Shown piece by piece: positions 1 through 37,723 of a DNA stretch of 38,635 bases. The stretch's first letter is position 1, and each line of letters opens with the position of its first letter. The notes beneath the pieces are model-generated. The model was not told the origin of the DNA, searched no databases, and saw nothing but the letters and a program-made list of their open reading frames with translations. The DNA comes from Jimgerdemannia flammicorona. Taxonomy: Eukaryota. Position numbers and translations under genes: made by a program. The DNA is taken from NCBI GenBank assembly GCA_003990765.1, contig RBNJ01000158.1:1-38635 (forward strand), read 5' to 3'.

Positions 1-9
1 AAAAAAAAA
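1..9 (+). other. A-tract truncating the inverted PLE copy; probable poly(A) tail of an element lying left of the window
   Basis: Similarity to the reverse complement of the forward copy stops at position 7 (aaagacaataag = rc of cttattgtcttt, ending 6307). The As further left do not match the forward copy. Confidence 0.45.
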
Positions 10-1361
10 GACAATAAGATCATCAATATACCAGAGGAACTTTAGCCCGGCAGCAACGGCTCGGCTGAGCAAATGATCAGACGCTTGCAAGGCACGTAAC
101 TCATGAGCAAAACCAATAAGATTGGTAAGATCTGGAGCACAATTAGTGCCCATAGCAATACCAGTCACAGAGCAGAAGGAACCGATGGTGGATATGAACG
201 TCGTATGAGTCATGACTATGCGGACAAGGCCGAGAATGGCTTCAAGTGGCAAAGAGCCAGGGGGGAAGGCCACCATCGACAAAAAGGTAAGACAGTCGAT
301 ACACTCATCTAATGTGATCCTGGTGTAGAAGGCAGTGAAATCTCCAGTAGCGACGTAAGAGCAATCTGACACATCAAGGTAATCCGATCGAATCAATTGA
401 AGCAGTTCTAACATATCACGTAGAGGTGAATAACGCGAATAACCCACATTATGGTGCAGATGGGCTGACCACAGATGGAGAAAGTGAGATAGGAAACGCG
501 AAATCTCGGTCGTGGGAGAGTTGAATGCACCAACGATAGGGCGCCATGCCACGCAAGCCCCTTTGTGTACCTTGGGCAGAGCATGAAACATGGGTAGCTT
601 ACAATTGTTAGGCTCTATGAGGTGTTCCCAAATCAGCATACAATTATGATCGCCGATGCAGAACTCGAGTAGACCAAGCAGGTCAAGCCTCACTGATTCC
701 TTAACATTATCAATCATAGAGGGATCATTCACGTACGTAGGATCGTGAAGGAGGGACCGAAGACCATCGAGATATAGAGCATGCAGTATAACGGCGAACT
801 CCAGATTCTTGTCAGTAAGACAGACAGTAAAGTCATCATGAGTATGGACGCCTTTAAGAAGACATCGGAACTTCTTCGGTACAAGCGTGCCGGACACATT
901 CGTCGTGGGTCGGATAGCTTGATTCAAAGCGGCACTCATATGGAGCATAATTTGCATATTTTCCATACAGTGTGGTGGTCACCATTTCGATGGCACCCAG
1001 GTGGAGATCTCCGGGACGTCATCAGAATTACCCATAGAGGTCCAGAAGGTGGCAAGGTAGAGACGCCGTTGGAACAATGACAATGAAATTGGGTCAATGG
1101 TGCTGTTCATCAACACCGACCCGGGGAGAACAAACTTAGGGCCAAAGTTCAGCATATATGTGAGCTCGGGGGTAAGCCAAGGCAGAGGTATATCAGTAAC
1201 AAAGCCCTCCTCGGTAAATATCCGAAACCGAGGAACGAAAAACTGACTTAATCGGGAACCGGGAAGAGAAGACACAAAGGCAAAATCCTCAATTGGTGTC
1301 GAGGCCGCTACTCCATGTGGAATGGGGACATCGGGGCCAAACCATGCTGCCGGGAAGTCAT
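7..1361 (-). pseudogene. PLE reverse transcriptase, inverted copy, truncated after the catalytic YIDD motif
   Basis: Reads LNFGPKFVLP, HALPKVHKG..WRPIVG, TGIAMGTNCAP and YIDDLIVF on the - strand. Confidence 0.9.
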
Positions 1362-1385
1362 ATAAGACCTCCAGGCTGGGGACCT

Positions 1386-2546
1386 CTAGTTTTTTGATGC
1401 TAGAGGGCAGACATCGCTGGCATTATGCCAGACGATATGACATTTAGCAGCAGTACACTTGTTGCACTGTAGTATAAACGCCCTGGCGGCACTCTTAGAC
1501 AAGCGGCTCGAAGTCGACGAGCGGCTGGTCCCAGTAGAAGCAGAAGAAACGGACGGGGAAGGTGAAGCCTTGCATGCTCGCTTGACCCCTTTTACAGAAC
1601 CCTCTGTCACAGCGGGGGCTAGGGGGCAAGGACCCTGGTGGGTCTTCGTAGGCACACCAAGGCGTCCAGAACAGCTACGGCAGTTCGGCGCAACGGAGGC
1701 CGAGGTCACCTTCACCTCCTTCATCTTTTCTGCAGCCCCCGCAGGCACGGCGGTAGAGGTTAGGGGGGTGGGGATGCTCTTTTTCGGTCAGGCAGAACCA
1801 GCGGCAGCAGAGGCAAATGTGCATTTGGCACCTGGAGTAGCGATTTCGGAGCGCTTCCCAAGCTCCTCGACCACGGCTTTGCGGGCAGCGGCGGAAATCC
1901 CATCTTGCAGGGAGGAGGATGCGGAGACTGTTGGGCAGACAGCAGCAGCAGCAGCTTTAGCAGTGGTGGCGGCGGCCAGACGGCGAGACTGACGCACGAC
2001 AATGTCAAAACCATGGAACAGAAACAAGTTTGTCTTGGCTCGGTCGGTGGCAGCAAGGGTAGCGATATTCTTGCTAACCCCTTGAGTGATATCAACGGAC
2101 ACACCAAAAAACTGGTAAGCATCAGAAGAACCACCCATGGCCTTGTCGATTTTAGCACGCTGGTCCTTAGCATGCTGGGTGGCGGCTTCTTGATCAGAAA
2201 CAGCAGCCTCGATCGCGGCAGTGGCACAGCGCTTAGCTTCTGCTGAAGCAGTAGTAAGGGCGGCATCATGCTGCTCCTCAGGTAGGAGAGCGATGGTAGC
2301 GGCAACCTTCTTGGAAGGAGTAAACCTCCAATCGGCAACCTGGGCCTGTAAAAAATTGGTGTGGCATTCCTTCGCGGCAGCGACCTCAAGGGCAGAAAGC
2401 ACTCCGGTGCAAGCAGCATGGAAGTAAGCAGGGACCTCGGCAGACGCAGCAGCGACATAGGCTGCAAGGTTGTTGAACTCTGCCAAATCGGTGAAGGAAG
2501 CTTTGGGGACGGCAGTATCGCCATCTACATTCATATTATCTGTCAT
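1386..2546 (-). pseudogene. PLE ORF1, inverted copy (Ala-rich helical N-terminus, two Cys/His knuckles), internal TGA at 1788-1790
   Basis: ORFs 1788..2546 and 1386..1748 are in one frame and mirror 3767..4927. Confidence 0.8.
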
Positions 2547-3056
2547 GTTGTGTATTATAAAACGAGTAGATAATAGCGGAAGAGTTTAGAGCGAGATGTG
2601 ATACTGTTATGGCGGATATGAAGGTCAGCAGTAAAAGGTCAAGCAGTTGGAAACAAAAAGCTTATGTGAATTTTCACGATAGAACAGAAAGTGGAATAAA
2701 GTGTTTTCCGAAGTAAGGTGCAATAGATCTGCAACCCACCCTCAGTACCACAATACATGGTGGTCTTTATTCATTTTGAGAAACAAAGTTCGGGTAAACA
2801 AAGACACGGATCTAACCCCATAATTCCGGAATCGGATAGGTGCATAAGTACCCGGACCTTGCCCTGATCCAAATAAAAGTCTGAATCAGGCTTCGTTGAT
2901 CTACACATGTGACGGGCCATTAAAAAACTGGATATAGTAACAATCAGGAAAAAGGTTCCAGTCATGTGATCTAATGTTACACAATCAGTAAACAATACCA
3001 AAAATGGAACTAGACCAATGACCCATCACGTGTTGTCACGTAATTGTCACTTATAG

Positions 3057-3760
3057 GTTTAAAAATGTGAAAAATCGCTGGACAACCTTCGGCATGAGGC
3101 TCTAGGCCTGACGCCTGTGTACTTATGCTTCATGACACCTGTCTACCTCCACTCGCTTCGCTCACTCCGGTGCTGAGGCTCTACTCTGCTCCAGTCACGA
3201 GGCTCTAGACCTGATGCCTATGCCTTCGGGTGCTGATGATTTTTAGATTTTTAAACCTATAAGTGACAATCACATAACAACACGTGATGGGTCATTGGTC
3301 TAGTTCCGTTTTTGGCATTGTTTACTGATTGTGTAACATTAGATCACATGACCGGAACCTTTTTCTCAATTGTTATTATATCCGGTTTTTTAATGGCCTG
3401 TCACATATGTAGATCAACGAAGCCCGATTCAGACTTTTGTTTGAATCAGGGCAAGGTCCAGGTACTTATGCACCTATACGATTCCAGAATTATGGGGTTA
3501 GATCCATGTCTTTGTTTATCCGAACTTTGTTTCTCAAAATGAATAAAGACCACCGCGTATTGCGGTGCTGAGGGTGGGTTGCAGATCTATTGCACCTTGC
3601 TTCGGAAAACACTTTATTCCGCTTTCTGTTCCATCGTGAAAATTTACATAAGCTTTTCATTTTCAACTGCTTGACCTTTTACCGCTGACCTTCATATCTG
3701 CCGTAACAGTATCACATCTCGCTCTAAACTCTTCCGCTATTATCTACTTGTTTTATAATA
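3057..3760 (+). repeat. 5' pseudo-LTR (704 bp) of the PLE
   Basis: Direct repeat of 6962-7665, from gtttaaaaatg to ttttataata. Confidence 0.95.
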
Positions 3761-3766
3761 CACAAC

Positions 3767-4927
3767 ATGACAGATAATATGAATGTAGATGGCGATACTG
3801 CCATTCCCAAAGCTTCCTTCGTCGATTTGGTAGAGTTCGACAACCTTGCAGCCTATGTCGCTGCTGCGTCTGCCGAGGTCCCTGCTTACTTCCGTGCTGC
3901 TTGCACTGGAGTGCTTTCTGCCCTTGAGGTCACTGCCATGAAGGAACGCCATGCCGATTTTTTACGGGCCCAGGTTGCCGATTGGAGGTTTACTTCTTCC
4001 AAGAAGGTTGCTGCTACCATCGCCCTCCTACCTGAGGAGCAGCGTGATGCCGCCCTTACTACTGCTTCGGCAGAAGCTAAGCGTCATGCCACTGCCGCGA
4101 TTGAGGCTGCCGTTTCTGATCAAGAAGCCGCCGCCCAGCATACTAAGGACCAGCATGCTAAAATCAACAAGGCCATGGGTGGTTCTTCTGATGCTCATCA
4201 GTTTTTTGGTGTGTCCGTTGATATCACTCAAGGGGTTAGCAAGAATATCGCTACCCTTGCTGCCACCAACCAAGCCAAGACAAACTTGTTTCTGTTCCAT
4301 GGTTTTGACGTTGTCGTACGTCAGTCTCACCATCTGGCCGCCACCGCCGCTGCTAAAGCCACTGCTGCTGCTGTCCACCTGACAGTTCCCATGTCCTCCT
4401 CCCTGCAAGATGGGATTTCCGCCGCTGCCCACAAAGCCATGGTCAAGGAGCTTGGGAAGCACCCCGAAATCGCTACTCCGGATACCAAATGCATGTTTGC
4501 CTCTGCTGCCGCTGGTTCCGCCTGACCGAAAAAGAGCGTCCCCACCCCCCTACCCTCTACTGCCGTGCCTGCGGGGGCTGCGGGAAAGGTAAAGGAGGTG
4601 AAGGTGACCTCGGCCTCCATTGCGCCAAACTGCCGTAGCTGTTCTGGATGCCTTGGTGTGCCTACGAAGGCCCACCGGGGTCCTTGCCCCCTAGCCCCCG
4701 CTGTGACGGAGGGTTCTGTAAAAGGGGTCAAGCGAGTGCGCAAGACTTTGCCTTCTCCATCCGTTTCTTCTGCTTCTACTGGGACCAGCTGCTTGTCGAC
4801 TTTGAGCCGCTCGTCTAAGAGTGCCGCTAGGGCGTTTGTACCACAGTGCAACAAGTGTACTGCCACTAAACGTCATGTCATCTGGCATAATGCCAGCGAT
4901 GCCTGCTCTCTAGCATCAAAAAACTAG
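3767..4927 (+). pseudogene. PLE ORF1 (~386 codons): Ala-rich predicted coiled coil plus two atypical Cys/His knuckles; internal TGA at 4523-4525
   Basis: 3767..4525 and 4565..4927 share a frame. Motifs CRSC-x10-H-x3-C and CNKC-x9-H-x5-C are present in both copies. Confidence 0.8.
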
Positions 4928-4951
4928 AGGTCCCCAGCCCGGAGGTCTTAT

Positions 4952-6931
4952 ATGACTTCCCCGGCAGCATGGTTTGGCCCCGATGTCCCCATTCCATATG
5001 GGGTAGCAGCCTCGACACCAATTGAGGATTTTGCCTTCGTGTCTTCTCTTCCTGGTTCCCGATTAAGTCAGTTTTTCGTCCCTCGGTTTCGGATGTTTAC
5101 CGAGGAGGGCTTTGTTACCGATATACCTCCGCCTTGGCTTACCCCCGAGCTCACGTATATGCTGAACTTTGGTCCTAAGTTTGTTCTCCCTGGGTCGGCA
5201 TCGATGAACAGCACCATTGACCTGATTTCGTTGTCGTCGTTCCAACAGTATCTCGACCTTGCCACCTTCTGGACCTCTATGGGTAATCCTGACAACGTCC
5301 CAGAGATCTCCGCCTGGGTGCCATCGAAATGGCGACCGCCGTACTGTATGGAAAATATGCAAATTATGCTCCATATGAGTGCCGCTTTGAATCAAGCTGT
5401 CTGACCCATGACGAATGTATCTGGCGTGCTTGTACCGAAGAAGTTCCAACGTCTTCTTAAAGGCATCTGTACTCATGATGACTTTACTGTCTGTCTTACC
5501 GACAAGAATCTGGGGTTTGCCGTTATACCGCATGCTCTATATCTCGATGGTCTTCGGTCCCTCTTTCATGATCCTGCATACGTGAATGATCCCTCTATGA
5601 TTGATAACGTTAAGGAATCAGTGAGGCTTGATCTGCTTGGTCTACTCGAGTTCTGCATTGGCGATCATAATTGTATGCCGATTTGGGAATACCTCATGGA
5701 GCCTAACGATTGTAAGCTACCCATGTTTCATACTCTGCCCAAGGTATACAAAGGGGCTCGCATGGCATGGCGCCCTATCGTTGGTGCATTCAACTCTCCC
5801 ACAACCGAGATTTCACGTTTCCTATCTCACTTTCTTCATCTGTGGTTGGCCCATCTGCGCCATAATGTGGGTTATTCGCGTTATTCACCTCTATGTGATA
5901 CATTAGAACTGCTTCAATTGGTTCGATTGGATTACCTTGACGTGTCAGATTGCTCTTACGTCGCTACTGGAGATTTCGCCACCTTCTACACCAGGATCAC
6001 ATTAGATGAGTACATCAACTGCCTCACCTTTTTGTCAATAGTGGCCTTCCCCCCTGGCTCGTTGCCGCTTGAAGCCGTTCTCAGCCTTGTCCGCATAGTC
6101 ATGACTTGTACAATGTTCACATCTGCCATTGGTTCCTTCCGCTCTGTGACTAGTATTGCTATGGGCACTAATTGTGCTCCGGATCTTACCAATCTTGTTG
6201 GTTTTGCTCATGAGTTGCGCACCTTGCAAGCGCCTGATCATTTGCTCAGCCGAGCTGTCGCTGCCGGGCTAAAGTTCTGCCGGTATATTGATGATCTTAT
6301 TGTCTTTACGCCCACGATTATGGACTTGGCCTCAATCTTTGCTGCTGTGTACCCACCGCACCATTGTATCGAATGGGAAGTCTTATCCGCTGGACCGTGC
6401 CATTACTTAGACCTGGAAATCCGAGTCGCACCATTCCACACAGGCCGCTTTGCTAAGTTCTCGCGTAGTACTCAGTTTGTCGACTGGTTGAGTAATCATC
6501 CTAGGAAGACACTCCGTCTATACATTGTGAATGAAGCCTGCTGCCTTTCGTTACTCTGCTCATCTCACCGTAATTGGCTTGATGAGTGTCGGTCTTTGGC
6601 CGAATTCCTGGTTCACAGGAAAGGATACCCTATTGATGTTGTAACCACTTAATTGAGTTTGGTTGATTGGCTTGAGGTCTGAACTTCACTTCTCACCCCT
6701 CCCCTTATTTCCCACCCCCCTATCCCCCACTTCGCTTTTCCTCCCCCGTTGCTTGTCGTCCAATATGACACGGCCTGATGGCTACATCAACAGCCTGACA
6801 AGACTCTACATACCACTTTGCTTCGTTTTGGTTTCCCTGCGACCGCCCGATGACCAATCATCGCCCGGAAGAATGGTTTTACCATTCTTAACGCTGTCTC
6901 AAACACCAGCTTTACTTTAAGTCCTCCTTGA
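4952..6931 (+). pseudogene. Penelope-like reverse transcriptase without endonuclease domain, several C>T nonsense changes
   Basis: LNFGPKFVLP, TDKNLG, LPKV(H/Y)K..WRPIV...SPT, GDFATFYT, IAMGTNCAP, RYIDDL, YLDLEI, WLSNHP, RKGYP. The TGA at 5402 is CGA in the inverted copy. The frame continues past stops to PIIARKNG..SPP* at 6929-6931. Confidence 0.92.
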
Positions 6932-6961
6932 AGGCCGCACCGCCTGTACGTGCCGTGCGAT

Positions 6962-7665
6962 GTTTAAAAATGCAAAAAATCGCCGGACAACCTCCAGCGC
7001 GAGGCTCTAGGCCTAACGCCTGCGTACCTATGCTCTGTGACACCTGTCTACCTCCACTCGCTTCGCTCGCTCCGGTGCCAAGGCTCTACTCTGCTCCGGT
7101 CGTGAGGCTCTAGGCCTGATGCCTACGCCTTCGGGTGCTGACAATTTTTAGGTTTTTAAACCTATAAGTGACAATCATGTGACAACATGTGATGGGTCAT
7201 TGGTCTAGTTCCGTTTTTGGCATTGTTTACTGATTGTGTAACATTAGATCATGTGACCGGAACCTTTTTCCCAATTGTTACTATATCCGGTTTTTTAATG
7301 GCCCATCACATGTGTAGATCGACGAAGCCCAATTCAGACTTTTGTTTGGATCAGGGCAAGGTCTGGGTACTTATGCACCTATCCAATTCCGGAATTATGG
7401 GGTTAGGTCCGTGTCTTTGTTTACCCGAACTTTGTTTCTCAAAATGAATAAAGACCACTGCATATTGTGGTGCTGAGAGCGGGTTGCAGATCTATTGCAC
7501 CTTGCTTCAGAAAATACTTTATTCCGCTTTCTGTTCCATCGTGAAAATTCACATAAGCTTTTCATTTCCAACTGCTTGACCTTTTACCGCCGACCTTCAT
7601 ATCCGCCATAACAGTATCACATCTCGCTCTAAACTCTTTCGCTATTATCTACTCATTTTATAATA
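6962..7665 (+). repeat. 3' pseudo-LTR (704 bp) of the PLE, followed by poly(A)
   Basis: Direct repeat of 3057-3760; the A-run 7665-7676 joins Gypsy RNase H sequence. Confidence 0.95.
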
Positions 7666-7676
7666 AAAAAAAAAAG

Positions 7677-9160
7677 CTTTTGGGAAAGGTAGGCTACTGG
7701 ATGATCTTCTTGACTGAGTACTGCTCCAATAGCAATGTCAGAGGCATCTGTGGTCAGAGTGAATGGTCTGGTAGAGTCAGGTGCAATTAGCACTAGGGCC
7801 TTGGTAAGGAGTCTCTTGAGATGGTCCATAGCCAGGGTGCATTTGGGGGTCCATTCAGCTTTAATGTTCACTCCTTTGCGGGCCAGACTGGTTAATGGAG
7901 CTGCAATAGCAGAGTATTCTTGGATAAACCTTTGGTAATAACTGGCAATACTCAGAAAGTACTAGAGTAGCTTGAGGGTAGTAGTGATAGAGATATCCTT
8001 AAGGGCTGATACCTTTCGGGGGTTCACATTGATACCTTCAGCAGAGATAATATGTCCTAGATATTCAATCTGGTCTTGGTAAAACTTGCATTTGCTCATC
8101 TTGGTATAGAACTGGTGTTCTCGCAGGAGGATCAGTACTTATCTGAGATGGGTGTAGTGTAGCTCTACTGTCTCACTGTAGATTAGTATATCATCAATAT
8201 ACACAAGAACATAGATGTTGAGGAGTGGTCCAAAGATGTCATTCATCAGATACTAGAATGTTGCTGGTACATTGGTTAATCCAAAAGGCATAACTCAGAA
8301 CTGGTAGTGTCTAAACCATGTTCGAAAAGCTGTCTTTTCAATGTCCTTCTCATCAATGAGAATCTGGTAGTAGCTATTTCGCAAATCCAGTAGAGAAAAG
8401 GTCTTGGCCTTGAAGATTTGGTATAGCAACTCATCAATCCTGGGCAAGGCATACCAGTTCTTGATAGTGATCTTGTTGAGGGCTCTGTAGTCAATACACA
8501 TTCACAGAGAGCCATTCTTCTTCTTGATAAATAGAATGGGAGCTCCAAATAGAGAGTGGCTGGGTTCAATATATCCTTGGGCCAGTAGTTTGGTCAATTC
8601 AACCTTGAGGATCTTGGAATACATTTTGGAATTCTTCAAACAGTTCTTGAGCTTCTGTTGGAATTGGGCTGCTTGGAGCTTCAGTGACTTCTTGTACTGT
8701 ACAGATGAAGTAGGTGTTTCCCTTTTTTCGAGAGAGTCTCTTCATTTGAATGGCAGAGATGATTTTAATTCCTTGGTGGTTGGTACCTTCCTAGGGTATC
8801 AGGGTGATCTCTCTGCCTTCATGGGTCAGGTTAACCTCATTGGTTCTTCAGTTGATATCTGGGTTGTGCTGGGTCAACCAGGCTTTTCCTAAGATAATAT
8901 CTTATCCTGGAAGGTCTATAATGCTAAAATTCAACTTCTCTTGATATTTGCCAATTTTGAGCAAAAGGTCTTCACAGATCTTGGTCAATGGTGCAGTCTT
9001 TCCATCACCAAAGATAACACTTCTTTTCTCAGGAGTTGGTCTGCTTTGGGCTCTAATTCTCTTAGTAGTCTTGGTGCTGATGTAGTTTCCAGTAGCACTA
9101 CTATCAAGCAAGACATTGACATTTTGTCTGTGGACTTGCCCTGTGAACTTGATACAACTG
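7677..9160 (-). pseudogene. Gypsy A pol: aspartic protease, RT, RNase H (N-terminal part)
   Basis: Motifs as listed for element A; multiple stops and frameshifts; boundaries approximate. Confidence 0.9.
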
Positions 9161-9479
9161 TCCTCCTTCTTGATGGTATTGAGCTCTTCATCCTTATTGT
9201 TGTCCCAATTGCTGTCAGTCTCCTCGAAGTCAGTTTCTCTCCATCCTTCACAAGGAGGGTTGTCTTGTTTGGGTTCCTCAGTCTGTTGAGCTTGGCACTT
9301 CTCAGATTGAATTTTGAAAACTTTGGAGAGACATGCATGGCATTCACCAATATGTTCTATGCAGTACATTCAAATCGAATGAGGGCATCATCCACATAGT
9401 GCATAACCATCTACAATTCTCTTGTACCAGTTTTCATCATCTTCCTTCATGGTAGTAACCTTTTGACTGGGAGGTTTGT

Positions 9480-9880
9480 TGGTAGATCCAAACCCTTTCT
9501 TGCCACAATCTGTCTGGGAGAGTTTGGGGACTTCTTCAATGATGAGATCTTGACAGATTTCTTTAATAATTGCTTGGGCAATTCTTTGGCCTACTTTGAC
9601 TTCAAATGATATATCTCCAAAATTTCACAAGATGACATAGATTTCACTAGTAAATTCTTGGTCAACTACTCCTCCTCCTAGCCCAATGTTGAACTCTTTA
9701 GCTAGGCTGCTTCGCTCAGTAAGGCAGATGTATATACCTCTGGAAGCTTGCATTGCAATTCCTGTTCACACTGTAGCATTGATACTTGGTGGGATGGTGA
9801 GGTCTTGGCTACTGTAGAGGTCATATCCAGCATCAGTTGGGTGGGCCTTAGTGGAGATGGTAGCCTTGTACCATATCTTC
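9480..9880 (-). pseudogene. dut: dUTPase domain of Gypsy A, between nucleocapsid and protease
   Basis: KAHPTDAGYDLYS, TGIA, (R)SSLA, GGVVDQEFTSEI, GQRIAQ, GKKGFGST: all five trimeric dUTPase motifs in order. Confidence 0.9.
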
Positions 9881-9982
9881 TGTACTTTGATGACATTCTT
9901 GGGATTCTTCTTTCCTGGGCCTTCTCCAATAATAGTAATGTTCTGGTTACTAGGTTCACCTATTCTATTCTTCTTCTCAGGG

Positions 9983-11000
9983 CATCTGAATGAGATGTGT
10001 TCTGCCTTCTTACAGATGAAGCACAATCCTTTTTTGTGGAGCTGCTTCTTCTCATCCTCAGTGGGAGGTCTGGGTTCTCTGGGGTTTCACTGGTTCCTTT
10101 GATCATTCCTATGATCATATCTTTGGTCATTCCTTTGATCATTTCTCCTGGTAGAGTTTCTCCTATCTTGGTTATCTTTCTTGTATTCTTGATTTCGTGG
10201 AGCTTGTGCAGCAAGGATTTCACAAGCTCTTCTTTGTACTTGGGCAAAGCACCATGAGTAGTGGGGACATCCTTGGGAAAGACCTTGTTCCTTGATTTTC
10301 TGAGTGAGCCAGTCTGGTAGGGCTGCAAAAAGATGGTTGGCTCTGGTATCATTAATGGCCAAATTGTTCTCCTGATAGGTAAGTTCAACAGTTTTGAGAT
10401 AGGCATCCATTCTGGTGGCAAAGGTCTCTAGATCCTCTTTGCTATTCTTGTGGAACTTCATCTGAGTTAGTTTATTCCAAGTTTCTTGTATGTAGGCTGT
10501 ATTTCAGAATTTGGTCAGTAGCAAGGCCTTGAGTCCTGAGCCTGCTTCATAGTTATCCCAACCTGGTCTATTGTTGCCAGGTACTTGTCCATTGACTTGA
10601 GGGTGGGCTTCCCAGGTTACTGGGTGTTATTCTAAGATTCGCCAGAATTTGGCTGCTGTTCCAGTGAAGAATGTAGCTACTGTTTCTACTTATGCTGCTG
10701 ATGTGGCAAACAGCTGTTGAAGGGTGCTGTTCTGGTTGTTGGTGAACATTTCTATAGGTACTTAGTTGTCATTCCATTGATTTGCTCAATAGCCTGTATC
10801 AACTGCATTAATGAAGTTTTTGATATCGCTGTTTTTTCAACTGAATGTTGGAATTCGCAAGGTCTTGGTTGGTTTGTTCTGTTCAGCAATCTGCCCTACT
10901 ATCCCTGCTAGTGCTACTAGCTGGGTGGTCAGTGCTGTAATATTGGCATCTACCATTGTGTTGACTATTGGTGGTGGGCCTGTTGGGGTAGATTCTCCTG
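9983..11000 (-). pseudogene. Gypsy A gag with CCHC zinc knuckle
   Basis: CFICKKAEHISFRC at ~9983-10024; capsid-like segment EDLETFATRMDAY upstream; start not resolved. Confidence 0.75.
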
Positions 11001-16568: not shown

Positions 16569-19500
16569 ATGTCTCGGCCTTATTCCTATATCCCTGACAA
16601 CCCATGGACGGATGCGCATGGTACCGCAGATTGGAGGGCTTCCGCCAGTGGTTTACTGAACAGCAATCGTTCAATTCCGGCTAGCTCAACCGAATTGTCG
16701 CCTCCATTGTCGCCCAACGTCGACACCGAAACGAATAGCACCGTAAGGCAGATTCACAATCCGTAAGTAGACGAAACAACTATAAATGTTTCCAGTTCTT
16801 TCATCATACTAATCTAAAGATAGAACACTCCTCACTGGCTTAGTTTTGTTGTTGAATCGACTTTCCAACGAAAACACAGCGGCAACGGAGCTCGTTCGTC
16901 TTTTATTGACCTGGCATCTCCGTTGCGCTTCCCGGAGGCAGCAGCTGTGATTGGAAACATTGCACCTCTGTTTGACAGGGATGATACAGAGAATGGAAGG
17001 CTACTGAACACCATCTCCGACAGAGAGGACCTTTTCACCGATACCCCAGACGCATCGGATTGGAACGTAGAAGGCACCGGTAGGAGGGTGGCCTACGATG
17101 ATTTCACGACCATCGGTGCGTGCTAAGGAATATTTTTTGGGTGGCGGTTGTTACTGATGCGTCGACAGCGCGAGCACGGACCTGGAATGATACTTAAAAC
17201 ATGTAATAAAGTGAACGGCATGATATGCCTCTTGCTATTACGTAGCAAATATCGCTACTAAAAACAACTGCCGGATATTTGTGCTGCAGTTTGATGTCTA
17301 AGAAGCTTGATATTCTCATCGAAGTATCTAATATTATAACCCTCTTTTAACCACAGATTGGATTCATGATTTCGCAAAAGAGCGGTCCCGGCAACGTCTC
17401 CTCAAAGAGAAGAATGGCTTTTATGGTCAGCTTGCCATCATGTACGATGCCACACAAGGCCCATTTATCGTTCTGATGACTGGGATAGCCTCTGGTATCC
17501 TTGCTGCTTCAATTGACATAACTTCAGAGTGGCTCAGAGATCTTAAGGAAGGACATTGCGATACTGCCTTCTATCTGAATAAACAATTTTGCTGCTGGGG
17601 CCTCGATGGTATGTTACGATTGCTTCTAGTTAAGACATATTAGGGTTATAAAGAGGGTTCAATAACCTATGCTTTGTTCCTGTACAGTACCTACAAACGA
17701 GATGTGTGACATGTGGATCCCATGGAGCTCAGCAGTGCATGCCAATCCCGAGTGGGGTAGTTTCTTGGTACAATACACAGTCTACGCGGGATTCGCGGTA
17801 TGGACCAACTGCCGTTTTTCTTTGCAGTATACCTTTTCCTAATTGGTTCGTTGATCTCGTGAATGCAGTAGTCATTGTAACGCCATTTACAACAGATGAT
17901 CTTGTCTGGTGTCGCATCGACGCTGGTAGTGAAGTTTGCTCCTTACGCGGCGGGAAGTGGGATCCCTGAGGTGAAGACGATCCTTGGTGGATTTGTGATA
18001 AGAAAATTTCTTGGTGTTTATACCTTGGTTGTAAAGAGTATTGGTCTTGTAAGTGTCTTGGTCTCATAAAAGCAAGCATTGGACGCAGAGTCAGATCAAC
18101 ACAGCCTTTTAGAAATAGCGTTGTTCTGTTTCTACTGCTGATCTCTGACCGACGTATTTTTCAATGGTATGATGCAGGTTTTAGCCGCTGCATCTGGCCT
18201 ATCTTTAGGTAAAGAAGGCCCCTTAGTTCACCTTGCTTGCTGCTGTGGTAATATCTTATCCCGCATATTTCCAAAGTTTCGGAATAATGAAGGTATTTCT
18301 TTGGTAAATCTGAGAACCAGAGCTTATTAGTCTCGTATATTAGATATTAATATCGTCTCTCGCTCCGAAAGCCAAAAAGCGTGAAATCCTGTCTGCTGCG
18401 TCAGCAGCTGGCATCAGTGTAGCTTTTGGGTCGCCGCTTGGAGGCGTTTTATTTAGTTTGGAGGTATGTGCCCTAATAGTTCCCATTGTAGATCATTGCA
18501 AATGGCAGGTTTAAAACTGACATCAAACTTGTTCGTCAAATCCTTCTCAAGGAAGTATCGTATTATTTTCCATATAAGACCATGTGGCGCAGTTTTTTCT
18601 GCGCGATGATCGCTGCAGTGTCGTTGCAGGTATGTCAAGCACAACATCATCGACATGGCGATCTAAAATATCAGCCACTAATGGCCATTACATACTTCTT
18701 TTCACAGTTGATGAATCCCTTTCGGACGGGGAAGCTCGTTTTGTTTCAGGTCTCCTATGATCGTGATTGGCATGGATTCGAGATGATTTTTTTCGCTTTA
18801 CTGGGCATTGTTGGAGTGAGTTTCGTTTCTAACCCTGTAGTTGTGACAGTCTTGACACGAGATTTTCACTTTGGTTTGTATTTGCAAACTTGCTTTCTAA
18901 TACGCCACCGCTGACGCCACTTCTAGGGTCTTTACGGAGCTTTCTTTATTCGTATGAATCTCATGGTCACTGCGTTCCGGAAGTCGTCGTGGCTTCGCAG
19001 GTTACCGGTCCAAGAAGTGCTGATCGTCACGCTCGCCACTGCCGTTCTGGGATATTTGAATCGATTCATGAGGTACATGTATTTGTTCGATTTGCTTAAT
19101 GTCAAAGTTACTATATGAGGCAATGACCACCTGGTGATCGGTATAGCAACAATGAATTCTGAACGGTTAGTTCTCATTCATTTACAGAGTTGGCGGATCC
19201 GAACTTGTTGCAAAGCTTTTTCGTGAATGTGAAAGCGGCGACTTTCAGGGTGTTTGCAAGTATGGTCTTGTTTATGCAATGTTGTCCTTTTTCGAAATTC
19301 GGATCGGCTAGTAGTGCGCCAAAGAAAAAGAAAAAAAAAAAAAAAACCGCTATTGGTTAAGGAAGCCTATATTAATGCGACAATTATATAAATTGTAGCG
19401 ACGATGTCATCGTCAAAAATATTGTGCTTTTACTTATGGCTGCGGCGATGAAGATTGTATTCTCAATCGCTACATTTGGCATGCATGTCCCTGCCGGGAT

Positions 19501-21633: not shown

Positions 21634-22974
21634 TGTGACAAATCTAAACATATCACCTGAATTATAACTTAGCCAGATGATGTGAACACCCAGCATAGTA
21701 ACCAGCAACCATTGCTGCAGAAACTGTATAAATAGCCAGACTATCAGATAAGGTATATCTGTGCAGGACCTATACACCTGTGCCAGACCTGCATACTTGT
21801 ACTGGACCTATACAACTTGCCATAAGTAGCAAATCTATAGTTAGCCACATAGCAATCAGATAGCAACCAACTTGTATAAATTACTCTAGAGACAAGAGTA
21901 AATAAACCTCAGTCTGAAATACAAATACCAAAGAAGCTTCTAAAGATTGAGCATTGGTCTCCTTTTCACTCTAGTCTACTTTCTGATATAAAGCTGATTT
22001 TGTTACCAAGTTCAAGTGAAGAACTTCACTGCCTTTAGAATTATTAGTATGCTTGTCAGACTAAGCCTAAAGAACCTGCTGTTTAAGGAATAAGCTATAC
22101 TATTGGTATACTTACCAGACTAAGCCTGAAGAATCTGAGTTTGCTGCCAAGTTCGAGGAGAACTTTGCCACCATTTCTAAGTTATTCATTATATTCCCAG
22201 AAAGCTGTCTTGCTCAAGTCAGTTTCTGATACAACTTTGTAGTGATCTATTTGTATAAATAAAGCCAGTCTTTGATGCAACTTTGCCAAGAGATCCTTTC
22301 CAAGAAGCTGTTAGCACATTTCCCAGTTAAAGCTACTAATTCAGAAGAATCCACACCATCTGAGTTAATTCCCAGAGAACTCTACCAATTCAGGAAGAAT
22401 CCATAACAACCAAGTTATTCATTTGTTCCCAGTGAGCCTAGTACAGAAGAACCTATGCTATCTTCTATTTCCAGTGAGCCAAATTGAGTTATCTGTCAGA
22501 AATTACATATTTTTGGAAATCATCATACTATACAGAGATTGTCATATAGAGATCACCATTGTCTAAGAAGGAAAACTGCTAAATTAATAGACCATTATAT
22601 ATAAGAAATCCATACTACACAAAGATCATCATGCTACACAAGATCATTATACTCAGAGATTACATACTTTTAGAGACTGTTACCCAAGAAGGAAACTGCT
22701 CACACTATATATGAAATCCTACCAATTCCTAGTTGACCCAAAAAGGAAAGATACAAATTACCACTATATCTAAAGAACTGTCCCAATTAGGAAATCAATA
22801 TACAAATTGCTCATAGATATCCAGCTTTGACTATTATATGTACTACTAAATACTAAGAACCTCAAGAATCATAGAACATTTTGTTGCTTTTTAACAAAAG
22901 TAACTGGGGGCTCAAGCCAAACTACATCAACCCCCAACCTTATAATTTGTCTCCATTGAGCCAGGCATGTTATA
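21634..22974 (+). repeat. 5' LTR of Gypsy C (1341 bp)
   Basis: TGTGACAA...GTTATA, collinear with 36387-37723. Confidence 0.95.
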
Positions 22975-29460: not shown

Positions 29461-31350
29461 GAAAAACTGTCAAGTTTTGGTGATATAGCTAGTCAAGGTT
29501 TCTCTAGCTCTGAGTGTCTGGAGAGGAGGAGACCTGGTCTGGGTATTCCTAAGAGCTTTGCAGCTGCTGCAGGGGCTGGTGTGGCTGCAGGAGGGGCTGG
29601 TGGACAGAGGAGGTCTGGTGGGATTGAGGCCTAGCATACGGTGGTTAGGAATAGGAGGGCTGTAGCTAGGCCCATAGGGGTGGGCCAGGGGGGGCATAGT
29701 GTTGACAGGGGGAGGGGTCAGGTGATGAGTCAGGTGACAGGTCAGATGGCTGGCAGGGGACAGAGGTCTGGTGGTGTGATGCTAGAGACTGGTTCTTCTG
29801 TGGCTGGGCAGGTGGCTGGAGAGAGGACTGCTGGTGGTACAGCTGTGACTAGTGAGGTGACTACTGGTGTTTCTGGGACCAAAGGAAAGGTGACTCTGGC
29901 AGCAGGGACAGGCAAGTTGGTGGTGAGGCCTTTCTTCCACAAATCGGTATAAATATGAGTAATCTTGGTGAACTTTCTGGGATTGGTGATGTCAGCGAGA
30001 GAGGTTCTGAGGCTGGTGGGGGAGGAAGTGGCTGGGGCAGAATCTCTGAAGTTCATCTCTTTGACAAAGGCTGTGGAGATTGGATTCATGGAGGAGGATG
30101 TGATGGTGAAGGCACTGGAGAAAGGGATGACAGTCAAGAATGTCCATATTGGGATAGCAAGGTGTCTGAGGTGGGATCTATGTGCTGTTTGACTGATGGT
30201 AGAAGGATTGCCAACTCTGGGCAGACAGGAGATCAAGGAGATAGTAGTAGAGGCACTGGGTGGATATAGTGAGATGGTGGACTTCAGGTTCATGTTCTGG
30301 GAGGGTACTAAGTTAAGGAATGATAACTGCGAGATAATGCTGCAACTGGAAGGCAAGGAGGTGATGGGGCTAGGATATGACTGGCCTGAGGGGATTAGAA
30401 TTGGGGGGCAAGAGTGTAAGGTGTGGAGGAGGAAGGGAGTGGAACTGGAGGAGAAAGAGTTGGCAATTGCTCTGGAGGAGAGAGAGGCAGCCAAGGAGTT
30501 GTGAAAGAGGAAGTGGGAGGAGTATGCCAAGGATTGGGTCTGGATCCAGGCAGATGGCAAGTGGAAGAGGTGGAGGAAAAGAAACTGAGAGCATCTGCAG
30601 GTGGCCCTTCAAGGGGCAGCAGTGGAAGAGGAGGCAAGAGTAGAGGTGGCCAAGAATCAGATGGAAGGAGTGGAGATAGCAGAGGTTTCCTTCTCCCAGC
30701 TGGGTGGTGTAGAGAACTCAGTATATGTGCTGGTGAGAGGAAAGTGGGCAGACAAGGAGGAGGTTGGTGAAGAAGGCTTTGAGGTTGATAATGAAGTAGT
30801 GCCAGAGACTCAGGTGGAGGATACCTATATGGCTGGGGTAGCAAATGTACACTGGGAGTGCCCAGAAGCTGGTGAGGTAGTTTATTTGGAGAAGGTTGCA
30901 GAGGAGGATGAGCTGGTGGATGTGGCCTCTAATGTGTCAGTGGACAGGGAGCAATTGCAAGAGCTGAGCAGGACCCCCAGGCCTTCGACTCCCAGACCCC
31001 TGATAATGACAGTGGAGAGCTGGTATCAGGAAGTGCTTGTGGAGCTGGCAGAGGAAGACATCAAAGAGATGGACATATTTCAGAGTTCTCAGGAGGCATG
31101 GGAAGGATTTCTCAATGTAGCAATGCAGGGGCCTAAGCTGGTGATGGCAATAGTAGCCACTCTTCTGAATAATGAAGGATATGATGTTGATGAGAGCAGA
31201 ATGGCCGACATCAGGAAGATGGCAGCAGAAAGAGTGGACCTTTTCTGCAGCAGTGCAAATGGTGATCATATCTGGAGGGCAATTTGTAAAGACCAGTGAG
31301 AGATTATTAGAGAAAGGGCTGAGAAGGTGGTGGTGGTCCTAGCTGAGCTT
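29461..31350 (+). pseudogene. LINE ORF1 (SFAAAA motif, RRM-like middle, acidic C-terminal part)
   Basis: In-frame fragments 29641, 29965, 30196 and 30601 separated by stops; boundaries approximate. Confidence 0.7.
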
Positions 31351-31365
31351 TAAACAATTTCCTTG

Positions 31366-34300
31366 ATGATGAAGAACAGTCTACATATTTTATCAATCAA
31401 TGTCAATGGATTGCAGGATGGTATTAAGAGACAGCAGCTTTTCAGGTGGCTTAAAGTCAGGAGGTATGATGTGGTATTTCTTCAGGACATTTGGGCTTAT
31501 GGAGTATTAGACTATGAGATGTGGAATAAAGAATGGTATGGTGGAGTAGGTTGGAATAAGCAGGTGGGTATCTTGGTTAGTATAGGCAAAGGCGAGCTAG
31601 TGGATGTAGAGATCTATAGTAACAGATTGATTTGGAGAAGACTAAAAGGAGGGGCAGGTGATGGTTTGATAGTTGGATCAGTTTACCTCCCTGCAGTTGG
31701 CAGAGAGTGAAAGCAATGAGTTGAGAGATGGCAGGCATGGAATGGGTGGGAGGCAGTTGCTTTGGACATTTTGGGGGAAGACTTCAATATGGTGCATGAT
31801 AGAACATTAGATAGGTCTGATGGTGGAGCAGGAGTTGCAGTGTTCTCTGGACTTTCTCAATGGCTTCAGGTGGAGCAAGACATGGGTTTAGTGGATGGCA
31901 TTTGTCAATGATAAGGGGATAAGTTAGGGCCTTTTACCCAGTGGTATCCTGTTGGAACTGCCTTGGTTGGGATACGAATAGATTGGGTACTAGTGATAGA
32001 GTGCTGGGGCAATATACTGGATATGGCTGAGGTACACTGGTGCACTTGGTCTGATCACTGGGGAGTGGAGGTTTGCAGTAGATTCCAAGTGGTGGGCAGT
32101 GGTGGAGGGCACTGGCACCTCAATATAGTCTTACTCAGAAGGAAGAAGGAGAAGGACCATTTTGTGACAGTTGTGAGACTGGAAGTAATGCAATGGCAGA
32201 ATGAAGAGCAGTTGATAGTAGAATGGTGGGGCAAATTCAAACATCTGGCTGGTACTTACTGGCATGATGTTGGAGAAGTGGCTGAGAAGGAGCAGAAAGA
32301 CAAGGAAAGGAGAGTAGAGAAGGGGCTGAGATGGTGATTGAAGCTTTTGGAAGGGGGGAACTTATCTGGAGAGATATGCCACCAGTTGGCAGTAGAGGTG
32401 GCAGAGCTGCAGGTGGATTTAAGGGTATCTGAGACCAGGGTGGTATATGGCCTGCTGGCCAGACTGCGAGCTAGATGGTTGGAAGAAGGAGAGAGGCCAA
32501 CAAGATATCTGTCTGGTATTTTGAAGGCTAGAAGAGTATGGCATAGTTGGGCCTTGGTGTTGTGTAAAGATAGAGTCAAGGTCTCTGGGATTGCTGACAT
32601 ACTAGAGGAGGTATCTGGCCAATGGCAAGCTCTCTGGCAGGATGACAGGGAGCATGCTGAGGATACCAGGCTTGGAGAGAATGATAACAATATGGTAACT
32701 GATTGGCCAGTGACCATGATACCTAAGATAGGGGAGGCAGTCATGGGGGAGGTGTCTCTAGATGAAGTATTGGAGGTACTGAGAAAGACATAGACTGGTT
32801 TGTCTCCTGGGGAGGATGGATTGCCCTGGGAATTCTGGAAGGAGTTCAAGACAGAGTTTGGTGACTGGTTGGTAGAGATGGCTAATGCCATTCTGAAGGA
32901 GAGTAGTTGGATTAGCAATGGCTCCTTGGGACTAGTTTCTCTTCTATATAAAGAAAAGGGAGATAGACGAGTGTGGTATAATTGGCAACCTATCATACTG
33001 CTGAATGTGGATAGAAAATTAGTATCCAAGATTCTAGTAGAGAGGATGCAACAGTATGTTGGTGTACTTGTTGGGGAGGAGCAGCGAGGCTTTGTCAAGG
33101 GGAGGCAGATCAGAGATAGTACTGCTTGGGTGCAGAATGTCTTAGAGGGCTGTAGGAGCCAGCAGATTGATGGTCAGATGGTCTTTTTAGATCAAGAGAA
33201 AGCCTATGACAGAGTGTGGTGAAGCTACTTGGAGGCTGTTCTGAGGAGAGCAGGGTTCGGTGAAGTAGAGGCAGGGTAATTGATGGGCTTGATACAGGGA
33301 TACTGAGCAGTGGTAATAATGAATGAATGATGTAGACCAGAGTTTGCCTTGGGGTGTAGAGTACCAAAAGGGGACCCTCTCTCCCCCCTTCTCTATGTAC
33401 TTTCTCTAGAGCCTTTGCTGGTGTGACTGAAGGGGTGGCTTTCTGGACTGTGGATGGGAGATGTGGTCTGGCAGTTGGGTGTTTTTACAGATAACATAGT
33501 GGTAGGGTTGGGAAGTCAGGAGGATGTCGAAGTCCTACAGAAAGGAGTTGGACAGTATGAGAGGCTGGCAGGGGCTAAGTTGAATTGGGGCAAGTGCAAG
33601 ACAATGGAACTTGGTACTGGCCTGGGGGAACATGGACAATTCAGACAATTGGTAGCTACAGGGAGTGCTGTTCAGTATCTGGATATCTGGTTCTCAGTAT
33701 ATGGGACAGTTCTGCCAAAGGAGTGGTGGTGTGGATTGATTCAGAAGCTGGAAGGTGCACTGATGGGATGGTCAGGAAGGAACTTCTCTTTAGTGGGCAG
33801 GATAGTAGTTTTGAATATATATTGGCTGCCCAAACTGTGGTACCTCGGTTACCATCTGGATTTTCCAGAATGGGTGGTGCAGCAACTGAAGAAAATTATA
33901 GAAGGGTGGTTATGGCATGAGAGGTGTCTACAGATTGGGTGGGAAACTTTGGTGATGAGGACTTCTGATGGGGGCATGGGGCTGGTGGATTTCAGGTACT
34001 GGCTGAAGGTACTTAGGGGTTAGTGGGGGTGCCAAATACTGGAACTAGGTGAGAAAGGGTGGGGCAGACTGACCATGGACAATTGGGAGATCTGGTTCTG
34101 CTCAAGGAGTGAGGTGTGGAAGAATATGTGGGGCTTGCTTCAGGTTGGAAGTGTAGGGAGACTGCAGTTTAAGGGGTTCTGGTGGGGTATTGTAGAGGCC
34201 TGGCTGGCCATGGGGTTGGCAGGCCCAGAGATAGAGGTGGGTGAGAACCCTGAGCTAAAATGGTGGTGACTGAAAGACCTTCACATTTGTGGCCACAGTT

Positions 34301-35010
34301 TGAAGGAGTACTCTCTGGTTGGGTGATGGAGTGGATCAGGTCAGGCCCTCTGGAGAGATGGCCACCTGGTTGACAGAGAGTTGGTATTGGTGAAGACTGG
34401 GAGTGGGTTCAAATCTGGAATTGGAGAGCCTTGGTATACAAGATGGGTGCCTCTCAAGTACTGGATGGTTTGGTGGCGATTCTTGAGGCGCAATGTGATG
34501 CTGAGCTATTGGACAGGCTGGATGGAGATAGATGGCTGTCAGGACTGTAAGTAGTATAATGAGGTGGATAGAGGAATTGTTCAGATACCAGAATATGTTC
34601 TGGTGGCCTGCCCAGGTGTGGAAGGGTTTTGGCAGAGTTTGGAAGATTACTGGGGCCCAGAGAGACAGAGGGCAGAAGATCCAGCCAGTCTGGTGGCCAA
34701 GCACCAGCTAGTGGGGGAGATTGGTGATATCTGGAGTGGTCTAGGCTGAGTTTTGGAGGTCTGGGTCCTGATGGCAGTGCATTGGCAGTGGATTTTTGAA
34801 CAGAACCCATGGATGGAAATTGGAGAGATGGTGGAGCAGTGGAGGTGGCTTCTCCAGGAGGTGGTACAGGGGTGGTAGTACCAGGGGAAGCAACTTCAAC
34901 CAGGGGTCTTAAAAAAGGTACAGGACATTGTACAGCAGAGTCGAGGGTACTTGGTGTTAGATGATATGGGGTAAGATGGAAGGAAGGGGTTGGCTGAAGG
35001 AATCTACTAA
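31366..35010 (+). pseudogene. LINE ORF2: APE endonuclease, RT, C-terminal Cys motif
   Basis: SINVNGL, FLQD, SVYLPA, GEDFN, RIDW, SDH; SPGEDGL, WQPIILLN, QRGF, DQEKAYDRV, KGDPLSP, FTDN; CQDC...C. Confidence 0.93.
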
Positions 35011-35099
35011 GTGTATTATATGTTATTATGTGAGGTTCATAGTGGTTGTAGTTAGTTATTATTGTATTAGATAGTTCATAATAAAGGAGTCCAAGTGAC

Positions 35100-35167
<68 letters not shown>

Positions 35168-36386: not shown

Positions 36387-37723
36387 TGTGACAAACCCAA
36401 ACACATTACCAGAATTATAACTTAGCCAGATGATATGAATACTCAGTATAGTAACCAGTAATCATTGCTGTGGAAACTATATAAATAGCCAGACTACCAG
36501 ATAAGGTATATCTGTATAGGATCTATACACCTGTGCTGGATCTACACACTTGTACTAGACCTGCACAACTTACCATAAGTAGCAAATCTATAGTTAGCCA
36601 CATAGCAACCAGATAGCAACCAACTTGTATAAATTACCCCAGAGACAAGAGTAAATAAACCTCAGTCCAAAATACAAATACCAAAGAAGCCTCTAAAGAT
36701 TGAGCATTGGTCCCCTTTCCACTCTGGTCCACTTTTTGATATAAAGCTGATTTTGCTGCCAAGTTTAAGTGAAGAACTTTACTGTCTTTGGAATTATTGG
36801 TACACTTGCCAGACTAAGCCTGAAGAACCTGCTGCTTAAAGAATAAGCTATGCTATTGATATGCTTACCAGACTAAGTCTGAAGAATCCAAATTTGCTGC
36901 CAAGTTTAAGGAGAACTTTGCCACCATTTCTAAGTTATTTGCTGTATTCTCAGAAAGCCGCCTTGCTCAAGCTAGTTTCTGATACAACTTCACAGTAATC
37001 TATTTATGCAAATGAAGTCAGTCTTTGATACAACTTTATCAAGAGATCCTTTCCAAGAAGCTGCTAGCATATTTTCCAGTTGAAGCCACCGATTTAGAAG
37101 AATCTATGCCATCTGAGTTAATTTCTAGAGAACTCTGCCAATTCAGGAAGAATCTGTGACAACTGAGTTATTTGTTTATTCCCAGTGAGTCTGGTACAGA
37201 AGAACCTATGCCATCCTCTATTTCTAGTAAGCCAAATTGAGTTATCTGCCAGAAATTGCATACTTTTGGAAATCATCACACTATATAGAGATCATCATAC
37301 AGAGATCACTGTCACCCAAGAAGGAAAACTACTAAATTAACAGACCATCATATATAAGGAACCTGTGCTATATAAAGATCATTGCACTATACAAGATTGC
37401 TATATCCAGAGATTGTATACTTTTAGAGACCATTACCCAAGAAGAAAACCACTTGCACTATATACAAAATCCTACCAATTCCCAGTTGACTCAAGAAGAA
37501 AAGACACAAATCACTGCTACATCCAGAGAACCATCTCAATTAGAAAATTGACATACCAATCACTTGCAGATATCCAGCTTTAACTATTATACCACTAAAC
37601 ACCAAGAACCTCAGGAATCATAGAATATTTTGTTGCTTTTTAACAAAAGTAACTGGGGGCTTAAGCCAAACTACATCAATCCCCAACCTTATAATTTGCC
37701 TCCATTGAGCCAGGCACATTACA
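36387..37723 (+). repeat. 3' LTR of Gypsy C (1337 bp)
   Basis: TGTGACAA...ATTACA preceded by purine-rich GTGAGGGCTGA and followed by TSD ATAG. Confidence 0.95.

Follow-up and report, generated by a model that had tools for sequence, protein, structure and literature searches.

An inverted 5' copy in a decayed endonuclease-less Penelope-like element of Jimgerdemannia flammicorona and its possible origin by fold-back self-priming

Structure and classification of the element

The stretch of DNA analysed here (hereafter the window) comprises 38,635 nt of Jimgerdemannia flammicorona (GenBank assembly GCA_003990765.1, contig RBNJ01000158.1, positions 1 to 38,635 of the forward strand). Near its left end lies a decayed Penelope-like element (PLE). 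Its direct copy (3057-7665, plus strand) has the order pLTR-ORF1-ORF2-pLTR, i.e. two open reading frames (ORFs) between direct pseudo-long terminal repeats (pLTRs), and is joined head to head to a partial inverted copy of itself, so that the two form a palindrome with arms of about 3 kb. An earlier note on this DNA had ascribed the palindrome to snap-back, self-primed second-strand synthesis. The features of the complex and of its flanks are as follows.

1-9, plus strand: A9 run touching the outer end of the left arm; bases 7-9 are common to run and arm
7-3056, minus strand: left arm, an inverted partial copy, reverse complement of 3257-6307
3057-3760, plus strand: upstream pLTR, 704 nt, 91.3% identical to 6962-7665 (BLASTN)
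3057-3066, plus strand: junction microhomology gtttaaaaat, 10 nt, the first bases of the direct copy, exact complement of 3247-3256
3057-3256, plus strand: predicted imperfect hairpin of about 200 nt at the palindrome centre, closed by a 10-bp stem
3247-3256, plus strand: internal complement of the first 10 nt, pairing exactly with 3057-3066; proposed fold-back landing site
3767-4525, plus strand: ORF1, 252 aa, Ala-rich, intact in each arm
4952-6652, plus strand: ORF2, 566 codons, with DKN motif, reverse transcriptase (RT) core, YIDD and thumb
5501-5509, plus strand: DKN motif of ORF2
about 5768-6343, plus strand: RT core of ORF2, then thumb; YIDD at 6284-6295
6962-7665, plus strand: downstream pLTR, in which both the hairpin (6962-7161) and the 9-nt pair (6962/7153) recur
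7666-7675, plus strand: A10 tract past the last shared base of the element (A-run 7665-7675), either a poly(A) tail or an A-rich target
7676-10086, minus strand: Ty3/gypsy pol fragments (RNase H, RT, protease, dUTPase; domain matches), target and flank of the insertion

The bases equivalent to 3057 sit internally at 6962, 312 nt downstream of the ORF2 stop, and the bases of the upstream repeat that match the element 3' end lie 7 nt before the ORF1 ATG. A single frame running from 3728 to 6649 holds three in-frame stops. The stops at 4523 and 4925 are common to both arms; the premature TGA at 5402 corresponds to CGA in the left arm, where a private stop (5333) and a 1-nt deletion occur. Because two of the stops are common to both arms and the third is private, the ancestral layout is taken to be one of two ORFs. 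The 400-nt stretch separating ORF1 from ORF2 is in frame with both (stops 4523-4525 and 4925-4927), which could mean that the element simply has two ORFs, that stop codons are read through or that an intron was retained. ORF1 matched no Pfam family at the curated cut-off. The length of ORF2 is in line with that of relatives of 554-562 aa, and the ORF ends about 118 residues past YIDD; a frameshifted C-terminal extension (6657-6917) was considered and rejected, as it showed no similarity to the C-terminus of the closest relative. No tRNA-like primer structures were found in 1-8000.

ORF2 carries the hallmarks of PLE RTs (TDKNLG, RPIV, AMGTN, RYIDD and SNHP...GYP). Among named proteins it is closest to some of Gigaspora and Racocetra (30-31% identity), the top match being 43% identical, and the family profile matches 37,888 proteins at E<=0.001. 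One of the 15 more distant profile matches that were scanned (P0085) combines RVT_1 with a C-terminal GIY-YIG domain, the canonical PLE architecture, and in a direct BLASTP comparison it aligned with the window RT across 326 residues (E 5e-23). The atlas neighbours carry HTH_animal and DUF8422, which is taken as a lead only, and a profile search against the PDB gave weak generic RT matches (best E 0.0017), of no help on class.

A Pfam search at E<=1 of the 974-residue read-through ORF, with stops written as X, detected no endonuclease domain, only RVT_1 and a weak unrelated match, and no nuclease domain was detected at the same threshold in two close relatives either. The GIY-YIG domain that distinguishes the endonuclease-containing (EN+) PLEs (Penelope/Poseidon, Neptune, Nematis, Naiad/Chlamys, Hydra) is thus missing from the searched frame, while the insertion shows the architecture of PLE insertions, with pLTRs and an inverted copy at the upstream pLTR. 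DKN, RT and thumb are typical of PLEs according to the description of a Coprina element (PMC13159263). We accept the element, from its sequence features, as a two-ORF, endonuclease-less (EN-less) PLE with a DKN motif, now decayed. The earlier note had also called it an endonuclease-free PLE, and the DKN, RT and thumb regions, the P0085 alignment and the Pfam result agree with that description. The label Coprina-like would refer to the DKN motif, the RT, the thumb, the two ORFs and the lack of an endonuclease, and not to a position on a tree.

Hammerhead ribozymes were searched for with Rfam, and no match was found at gathering score across the window, nor any hammerhead family at E<=5 in 2400-7900, where the scan returned two weak matches at chance level; minimal PLE hammerhead variants may slip past the Rfam models. 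No telomeric repeats, either of the (CCCTAA)n type or of the G-strand, occur within the window, and the genomic position is interstitial-looking, with the 3' end of the element at an A-run and a gypsy pol gene.

On the right, the PLE complex cuts a decayed Ty3/gypsy pol, in which a dUTPase is placed between the protease (of the aspartyl type) and the upstream regions. The RNase H match breaks off at profile position 65 of 100, at the PLE end, following SQKL. Read on the minus strand, the right junction is gypsy ...SQKL, then the T-run, then the element 3' end, the layout that primed reverse transcription would leave. On the left, the outer end of the arm has a 3-nt A/T overlap beside the A9 run, which may derive from an A-tract of the target, from the tail of an element lying upstream or from a second jump onto poly(A). 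A/T runs of at least 9 nt number only six in the whole window, and two of them flank the PLE complex on the same strand, which suggests either that an A-tract already present was the insertion site or that a second jump onto poly(A) took place.

The inverted duplication, its junction and its age

The palindrome was recovered by BLASTN as a single match (7-3076 against 6307-3238, 91.892% over 3071 columns) and by a repeat search as two arm pairs, 7-1354/4960-6307 and 1352-3073/3240-4961, each 92% complementary; the arm-to-arm alignment contains 247 mismatches and two single-base gaps. The three methods agree on what had first been reported from the letters alone, namely inverted arms around a loop of about 180 nt, and an inverted repeat of 3 kb cannot be a product of chance. 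The left arm contains an intact copy of ORF1 (1788-2546) and ORF2 as far as the YIDDLIVF codons.

At the inner junction the first bases of the direct copy are the exact complement of an internal segment, with a spacer of 180 nt behind the 10-bp stem and no filler bases. The complementarity had been given as 9 nt (3057-3065 with 3248-3256); it is indeed exact, and reaches 10 nt. The base beyond the pair is a G/C transversion. Because transversions account for only 6 of the 247 differences between the arms, homology by descent is considered to end at the 10-nt pair; the apparent extension of the arms to 3073/3240 was rejected as a resemblance of A/T runs with two mismatches. That the complementarity is exact over ten nucleotides and free of filler implies that the joint was made by annealing. 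According to our own rough estimate, which was not computed by a tool, microhomology of 10 nt at a random joint would be met roughly once in 10^5 to 10^6 cases.

The presence of the same 9-nt pair in the downstream repeat (6962/7153) was also verified, but the conclusion formerly drawn from it, that the complement is built into the element, adds nothing to the argument, since any annealing-mediated junction needs a pre-existing complement. In the 4.6-kb element, inverted repeats of at least 10 nt with partners within 300 nt are two distinct ones, at four overlapping positions (100 shuffles: mean 1.0, maximum 6), and those of 9 nt occur at nine positions against a shuffle mean of 4.9. What is not due to chance is the exact coincidence of the arm breakpoint with the 10-nt pair.

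The predicted hairpin bounded by this pair has a minimum free energy of -66.6 kcal/mol as RNA (z -2.95, with 2 of 200 shuffles equally good) and of -28.9 as minus-strand DNA (z -1.96). In either pLTR copy the fold takes in the whole of the first 200 nt, with 60 pairs common to both, and on a 25-nt grid of 200-nt windows only 3057-3256 pairs all of its first 10 bases with its last 10. Three of the 60 pairs show compensatory-looking changes between the two copies; they are not taken as a sign of selection, since paired CpG decay (about 30% per copy) can account for them.

The arms have aged as two separate copies. Their differences are transitions in 241 cases and transversions in six; 148 of the 241 transitions fall at CpG, where 62 sites have been lost per arm and 80 are kept in both, and the codon differences are 61 synonymous and 125 non-synonymous. 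Such a pattern is that of two copies, identical at first, which decayed neutrally by deamination. Since the arms have decayed separately and differ at 8% of sites, the palindrome is not an artefact of a chimeric read or of fold-back during assembly.

The region shared by the left arm and the two pLTRs allows the three to be dated against each other. Over 504 ungapped three-way columns the pairwise identities are 92.9, 92.7 and 92.7%, and the private changes number 18 in the left arm, 18 in the upstream pLTR and 19 in the downstream pLTR (C>T or G>A in 45 of the 55). With such counts the inverted arm is of the same age as the pLTR pair, and we estimate from them that no more than about the first fifth of the time since insertion, if any, had passed when it arose. 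Equal ages place the making of the arm at, or very near, insertion, and so favour an event coupled to reverse transcription.

Throughout 7-7665 the decay spectrum is nearly pure C>T and G>A, with a preference for CpG and then for CpA/TpG, and about 30% of the CpGs have been lost per copy. This spectrum points to cytosine methylation or repeat-directed deamination in the genome.

Origin of the inverted arm

We read the complex as the fossil of a single insertion of an EN-less, Coprina-like PLE, in which the palindrome is a by-product of fold-back self-priming, and we hold this reading with about as much confidence as doubt. In such a scheme, minus-strand DNA would be primed at the right-hand flank and would copy the RNA leftward through the pLTR. 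Once the hairpin of about 200 nt had been copied, the 3' end of the minus strand (the complement of 3057-3066) would anneal to its own 3247-3256 segment and would be extended on its own strand for about 3.05 kb. Synthesis would then stop or jump at the TTT of 6305-6307, inside the YIDDLIVF codons, and the product would be joined to the left A/T tract (A9, window 1-9). The minus strand expected from these steps, namely the T-run, the complement of 7665 back to 3057, and the sense sequence from 3257 onward, is identical in layout to the bottom strand of the window. RTs are known to extend a folded-back minus-strand 3' hairpin in HIV-1, where dead-end products are formed (PMC6088434). We likewise read the arm as an accidental dead-end by-product, akin to the inverted 5' copies found in PLE insertions; obligatory priming is not proven by it.

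The snap-back proposal of the earlier note is therefore retained in part. The topology without extra bases, the pre-existing complement and an arm as old as the pLTRs all speak for it, and what does not stand is the dedicated role that had been given to the fold-back primer: there is one instance, the pair is near chance frequency, and the arm breaks off within the codons of the RT active site.

Several points weigh against even the accidental form of fold-back self-priming. It is a single instance, and the metagenome, genome and viral collections contain no copy of the family closer than 22-36% protein identity. The sequence by itself cannot tell cDNA fold-back apart from opposite-strand priming or from an antisense RNA that primed itself. 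The 10-nt inverted repeat, taken on its own, is near chance frequency, and the hairpin surpasses shuffles only moderately (z -2 to -3) and is about one standard deviation better than the mean 200-nt window of the element. The end of the arm within ORF2, beside a plus-strand A-run, needs an extra step, either a premature stop followed by joining or a second jump; moreover, the left arm begins 6 bases from the start of the window, and the flank to the left of base 1 is outside view. PLE RTs are not known to have an RNase H, and release of the cDNA from the RNA would need a host activity.

A process resembling twin priming might instead have made the arm, an explanation that we consider rather unlikely. 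Here the top-strand A-run would prime at the UUU of 6305-6307 on a second or multimeric PLE RNA and copy it in the direction of its 5' end, and the 3' ends of the two cDNAs would anneal via the 10-nt complement. The 3-nt A/T overlap that the arm shows at its outer end, beside A9, agrees with this; a PLE protein is described as extending both target strands in vitro (PMC11167929), 5' inversions of L1 are explained by twin priming (bioRxiv 10.1101/2024.12.14.628481), and the tandem or circular-mapping units of the relatives described below make multimeric templates plausible. A single unit-length RNA, however, could not serve both primers, since 3257-6307 is also present in the direct copy, and because the inverted part duplicates sequence of the direct copy, twin priming in its classical form is disfavoured. 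Synthesis would also have had to stop independently on two occasions, each time exactly at one half of the 10-nt pair, and the in vitro precedent relies on a GIY-YIG nuclease, which the element is without.

Fold-back at the DNA level is, in our opinion, improbable. A break beside the inserted element would have been resected, the 3' strand would have snapped back on the 10-nt repeat, and a host polymerase would have extended it. The geometry of the product would be identical, and the neighbourhood of L1 insertions offers documented examples of fold-back junctions at break ends (bioRxiv 10.1101/2024.12.14.628481). The counts of private changes (18, 18 and 19), however, leave no measurable time between the duplication of the pLTR and the formation of the arm, and a bounded 3-kb arm rejoined to its flank would be an unusual outcome for a chromosomal fold-back.

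A stronger form of the self-priming idea would make it the regular route of the family, and this we regard as doubtful at best. EN-less Coprina-like PLEs would have a built-in hairpin or complement at the 5' terminus from which minus-strand cDNA routinely primes the second strand, and the palindrome would be an unresolved replication intermediate that became trapped. An EN-less element has to obtain 3'-OH primers from somewhere, the pair and the hairpin occur in both pLTR copies, the hairpin is closed by the pair precisely at the copy's first base, and palindromes recur at the 5' ends of the pLTRs of EN+ PLEs according to PMC3846280. Against this there is one dead instance with an incomplete arm, a frequency of inverted repeats near that of chance, compensatory-looking changes of the kind expected from paired CpG decay, and an RNA 5' end that is presumed to lie at 3057. 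The absence of a similar inverted copy in the 21 relative loci scanned also counts against it, as weak evidence from short contigs of distant families. If this stronger form were true, the way in which all PLEs come to have tandem and inverted pLTRs would follow from the RT and the RNA and not from the GIY-YIG nuclease, the nuclease being the explanation that is held to be very likely in PMC8557442.

The model of Arkhipova et al. (2013), in which an antisense RNA primes itself, is very unlikely to apply. A transcript ending opposite 3057 would fold back and RT would extend its 3' end, with identical geometry, and such a process has been proposed for head-to-head PLE junctions and for intron retention (PMC3846280); yet an antisense transcript at the locus would have to be presumed, and the right junction, where an A-run comes after the 3' end of the sense copy, agrees with a sense template bearing an A-tail. 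Finally, an assembly misjoin or two independent head-to-head insertions are hardly credible, for although palindromes are prone to assembly error (PMC8557442), arms differing at 8% of sites exclude a chimeric fold-back read and a 10-nt overlap would be too short for an assembler to join, while the equal age of the three copies and their zero-distance abutment on a 10-nt complement make independent insertions unlikely.

Comparison with known systems, distant relatives and other features of the window

PLE insertions often bear an inverted, 5'-truncated copy beside the upstream pLTR, the cause of which is described as undefined and tentatively connected with the GIY-YIG nuclease (PMC8557442). 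Arkhipova et al. (2013) report an inverted pLTR overlapping the direct pLTR by 15 bp, as well as palindromes of 18 bp and 38 bp at the 5' ends of pLTRs, and self-priming is inferred there from the palindromic inverted-pLTR junctions of EN+ PLEs (PMC3846280). In a literature search on PLEs and self-priming, judged by title and abstract, this was the only PLE paper found. The mechanism put forward in the earlier note is therefore a sensible reading, but as a route it is not of a new kind. According to the same source, the inverted-pLTR organization is not shared by the EN-deficient PLEs of fungi and protists (PMC3846280). What is new at the present locus is the inverted 5' architecture in a PLE without a nuclease; the self-priming idea is already known.

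The window element resembles the EN+ PLEs as they are described (Pen2a_Av and Pen3a of Adineta vaga, Penelope, Naiad) in that direct pLTRs flank the ORF and an inverted copy overlaps the upstream pLTR, with an overlap at the junction of 10 bp instead of 15 bp. Unlike them, it has no GIY-YIG domain, and its complement closes a 180-nt spacer or hairpin and does not form a contiguous palindrome; its inverted copy is 3 kb long and without a 3' end of its own, and no hammerhead was found. With Coprina/Athena it shares DKN, RT, thumb and the lack of an endonuclease, and it has two ORFs as in Coprina-1_Alen (PMC13159263). It differs from Coprina/Athena in having no telomeric repeats in the window, no hammerhead motif, and an end at an A-run inside gypsy pol.

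The closest analogue of the proposed fold-back step is the TAR-dependent self-priming of HIV-1, in which the minus-strand strong-stop DNA's 3' end, fresh from a 5' RNA hairpin, folds back and is extended by RT (PMC6088434). As described there, this is an in vitro side reaction which nucleocapsid protein suppresses and for which no integration is known, whereas the product in the window appears to be chromosomally fixed. Twin priming and the fold-backs of target-primed reverse transcription in L1 also give inverted segments from one insertion with microhomology joins (bioRxiv 10.1101/2024.12.14.628481), but twin priming in its classical form inverts an adjacent, non-duplicated part of the RNA, whereas 3257-6307, the arm of the window element, is duplicated in the direct copy.

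Linear retroplasmids of Fusarium (pFOXC) have a terminal hairpin that primes reverse transcription without an endonuclease. They differ from the present case in being extrachromosomal mitochondrial plasmids, while the window copy is chromosomal, flanked by gypsy DNA and interrupting an RNase H domain.

A same-age, microhomology-joined, head-to-head copy in a nuclease-less PLE would favour a self-priming or RT-driven origin of PLE ends, and would extend the inverted architecture to the EN-less, fungal-type branch of PLEs, which is said to be without it. One decayed example is a pointer to the family and not a demonstration.

BLASTN found no further copies of the family in the window. Among collections, relatives came from metagenomes, at 22 loci with 22-36% protein identity on contigs of 1.2-11.8 kb; a search for closer copies gave one locus at 26% in the genome collection and none in the viral collection. 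An inverted 5' copy like that at 7-3056 was present in 0 of the 21 relative loci scanned (22 were fetched), all on short metagenome contigs from distant families, and this result says little, because metagenome assemblers break at such repeats. No hammerhead was found in 20 of the relative loci.

Some of these metagenome relatives have a peculiar organization. The contigs of L001, L003-L005, L007-L010 and L013-L015 measure about 3.1-3.7 kb, and the ends overlap exactly in 11 of the 22 loci; L014 is the twelfth such locus, with 3.7 identical tandem units of 3196 nt, and near-terminal repeats occur in L002, L012 and L018. The units of the circular-mapping or tandem relatives are 3.07-3.58 kb long, with an RT ORF of roughly 650-950 residues from stop to stop, and could be either circular forms or EN-less PLEs in telomeric tandem arrays that have been collapsed. 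Sense-strand (CCCTAA)2-3 or (CCTAA)2 was found in four of the 22 loci (L003:348, L006:95, L012:21 and L019:175) and the G-strand in none, which fits the habit of EN-less PLEs of pairing with telomeric overhangs.

In the remainder of the window, a short ORF at 18492-18911 has a weak match, just under the Pfam cut-off, to voltage-gated chloride channels (CLC), and is probably a host-gene exon among repeats. The region 29745-35165 is G-rich (GC skew up to 0.49), carries fragments of an endonuclease/exonuclease/phosphatase domain and of an RT on the plus strand, and ends in a pure A63 (35103-35165); it is probably an element similar to long interspersed nuclear elements (LINE-like) with a long tail. 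This region is bracketed by a direct repeat of 1.33 kb (21634-22967 and 36387-37716; 85.7% identical, 14.7 kb apart), which could be either a pair of LTRs or another repeat present in two copies.

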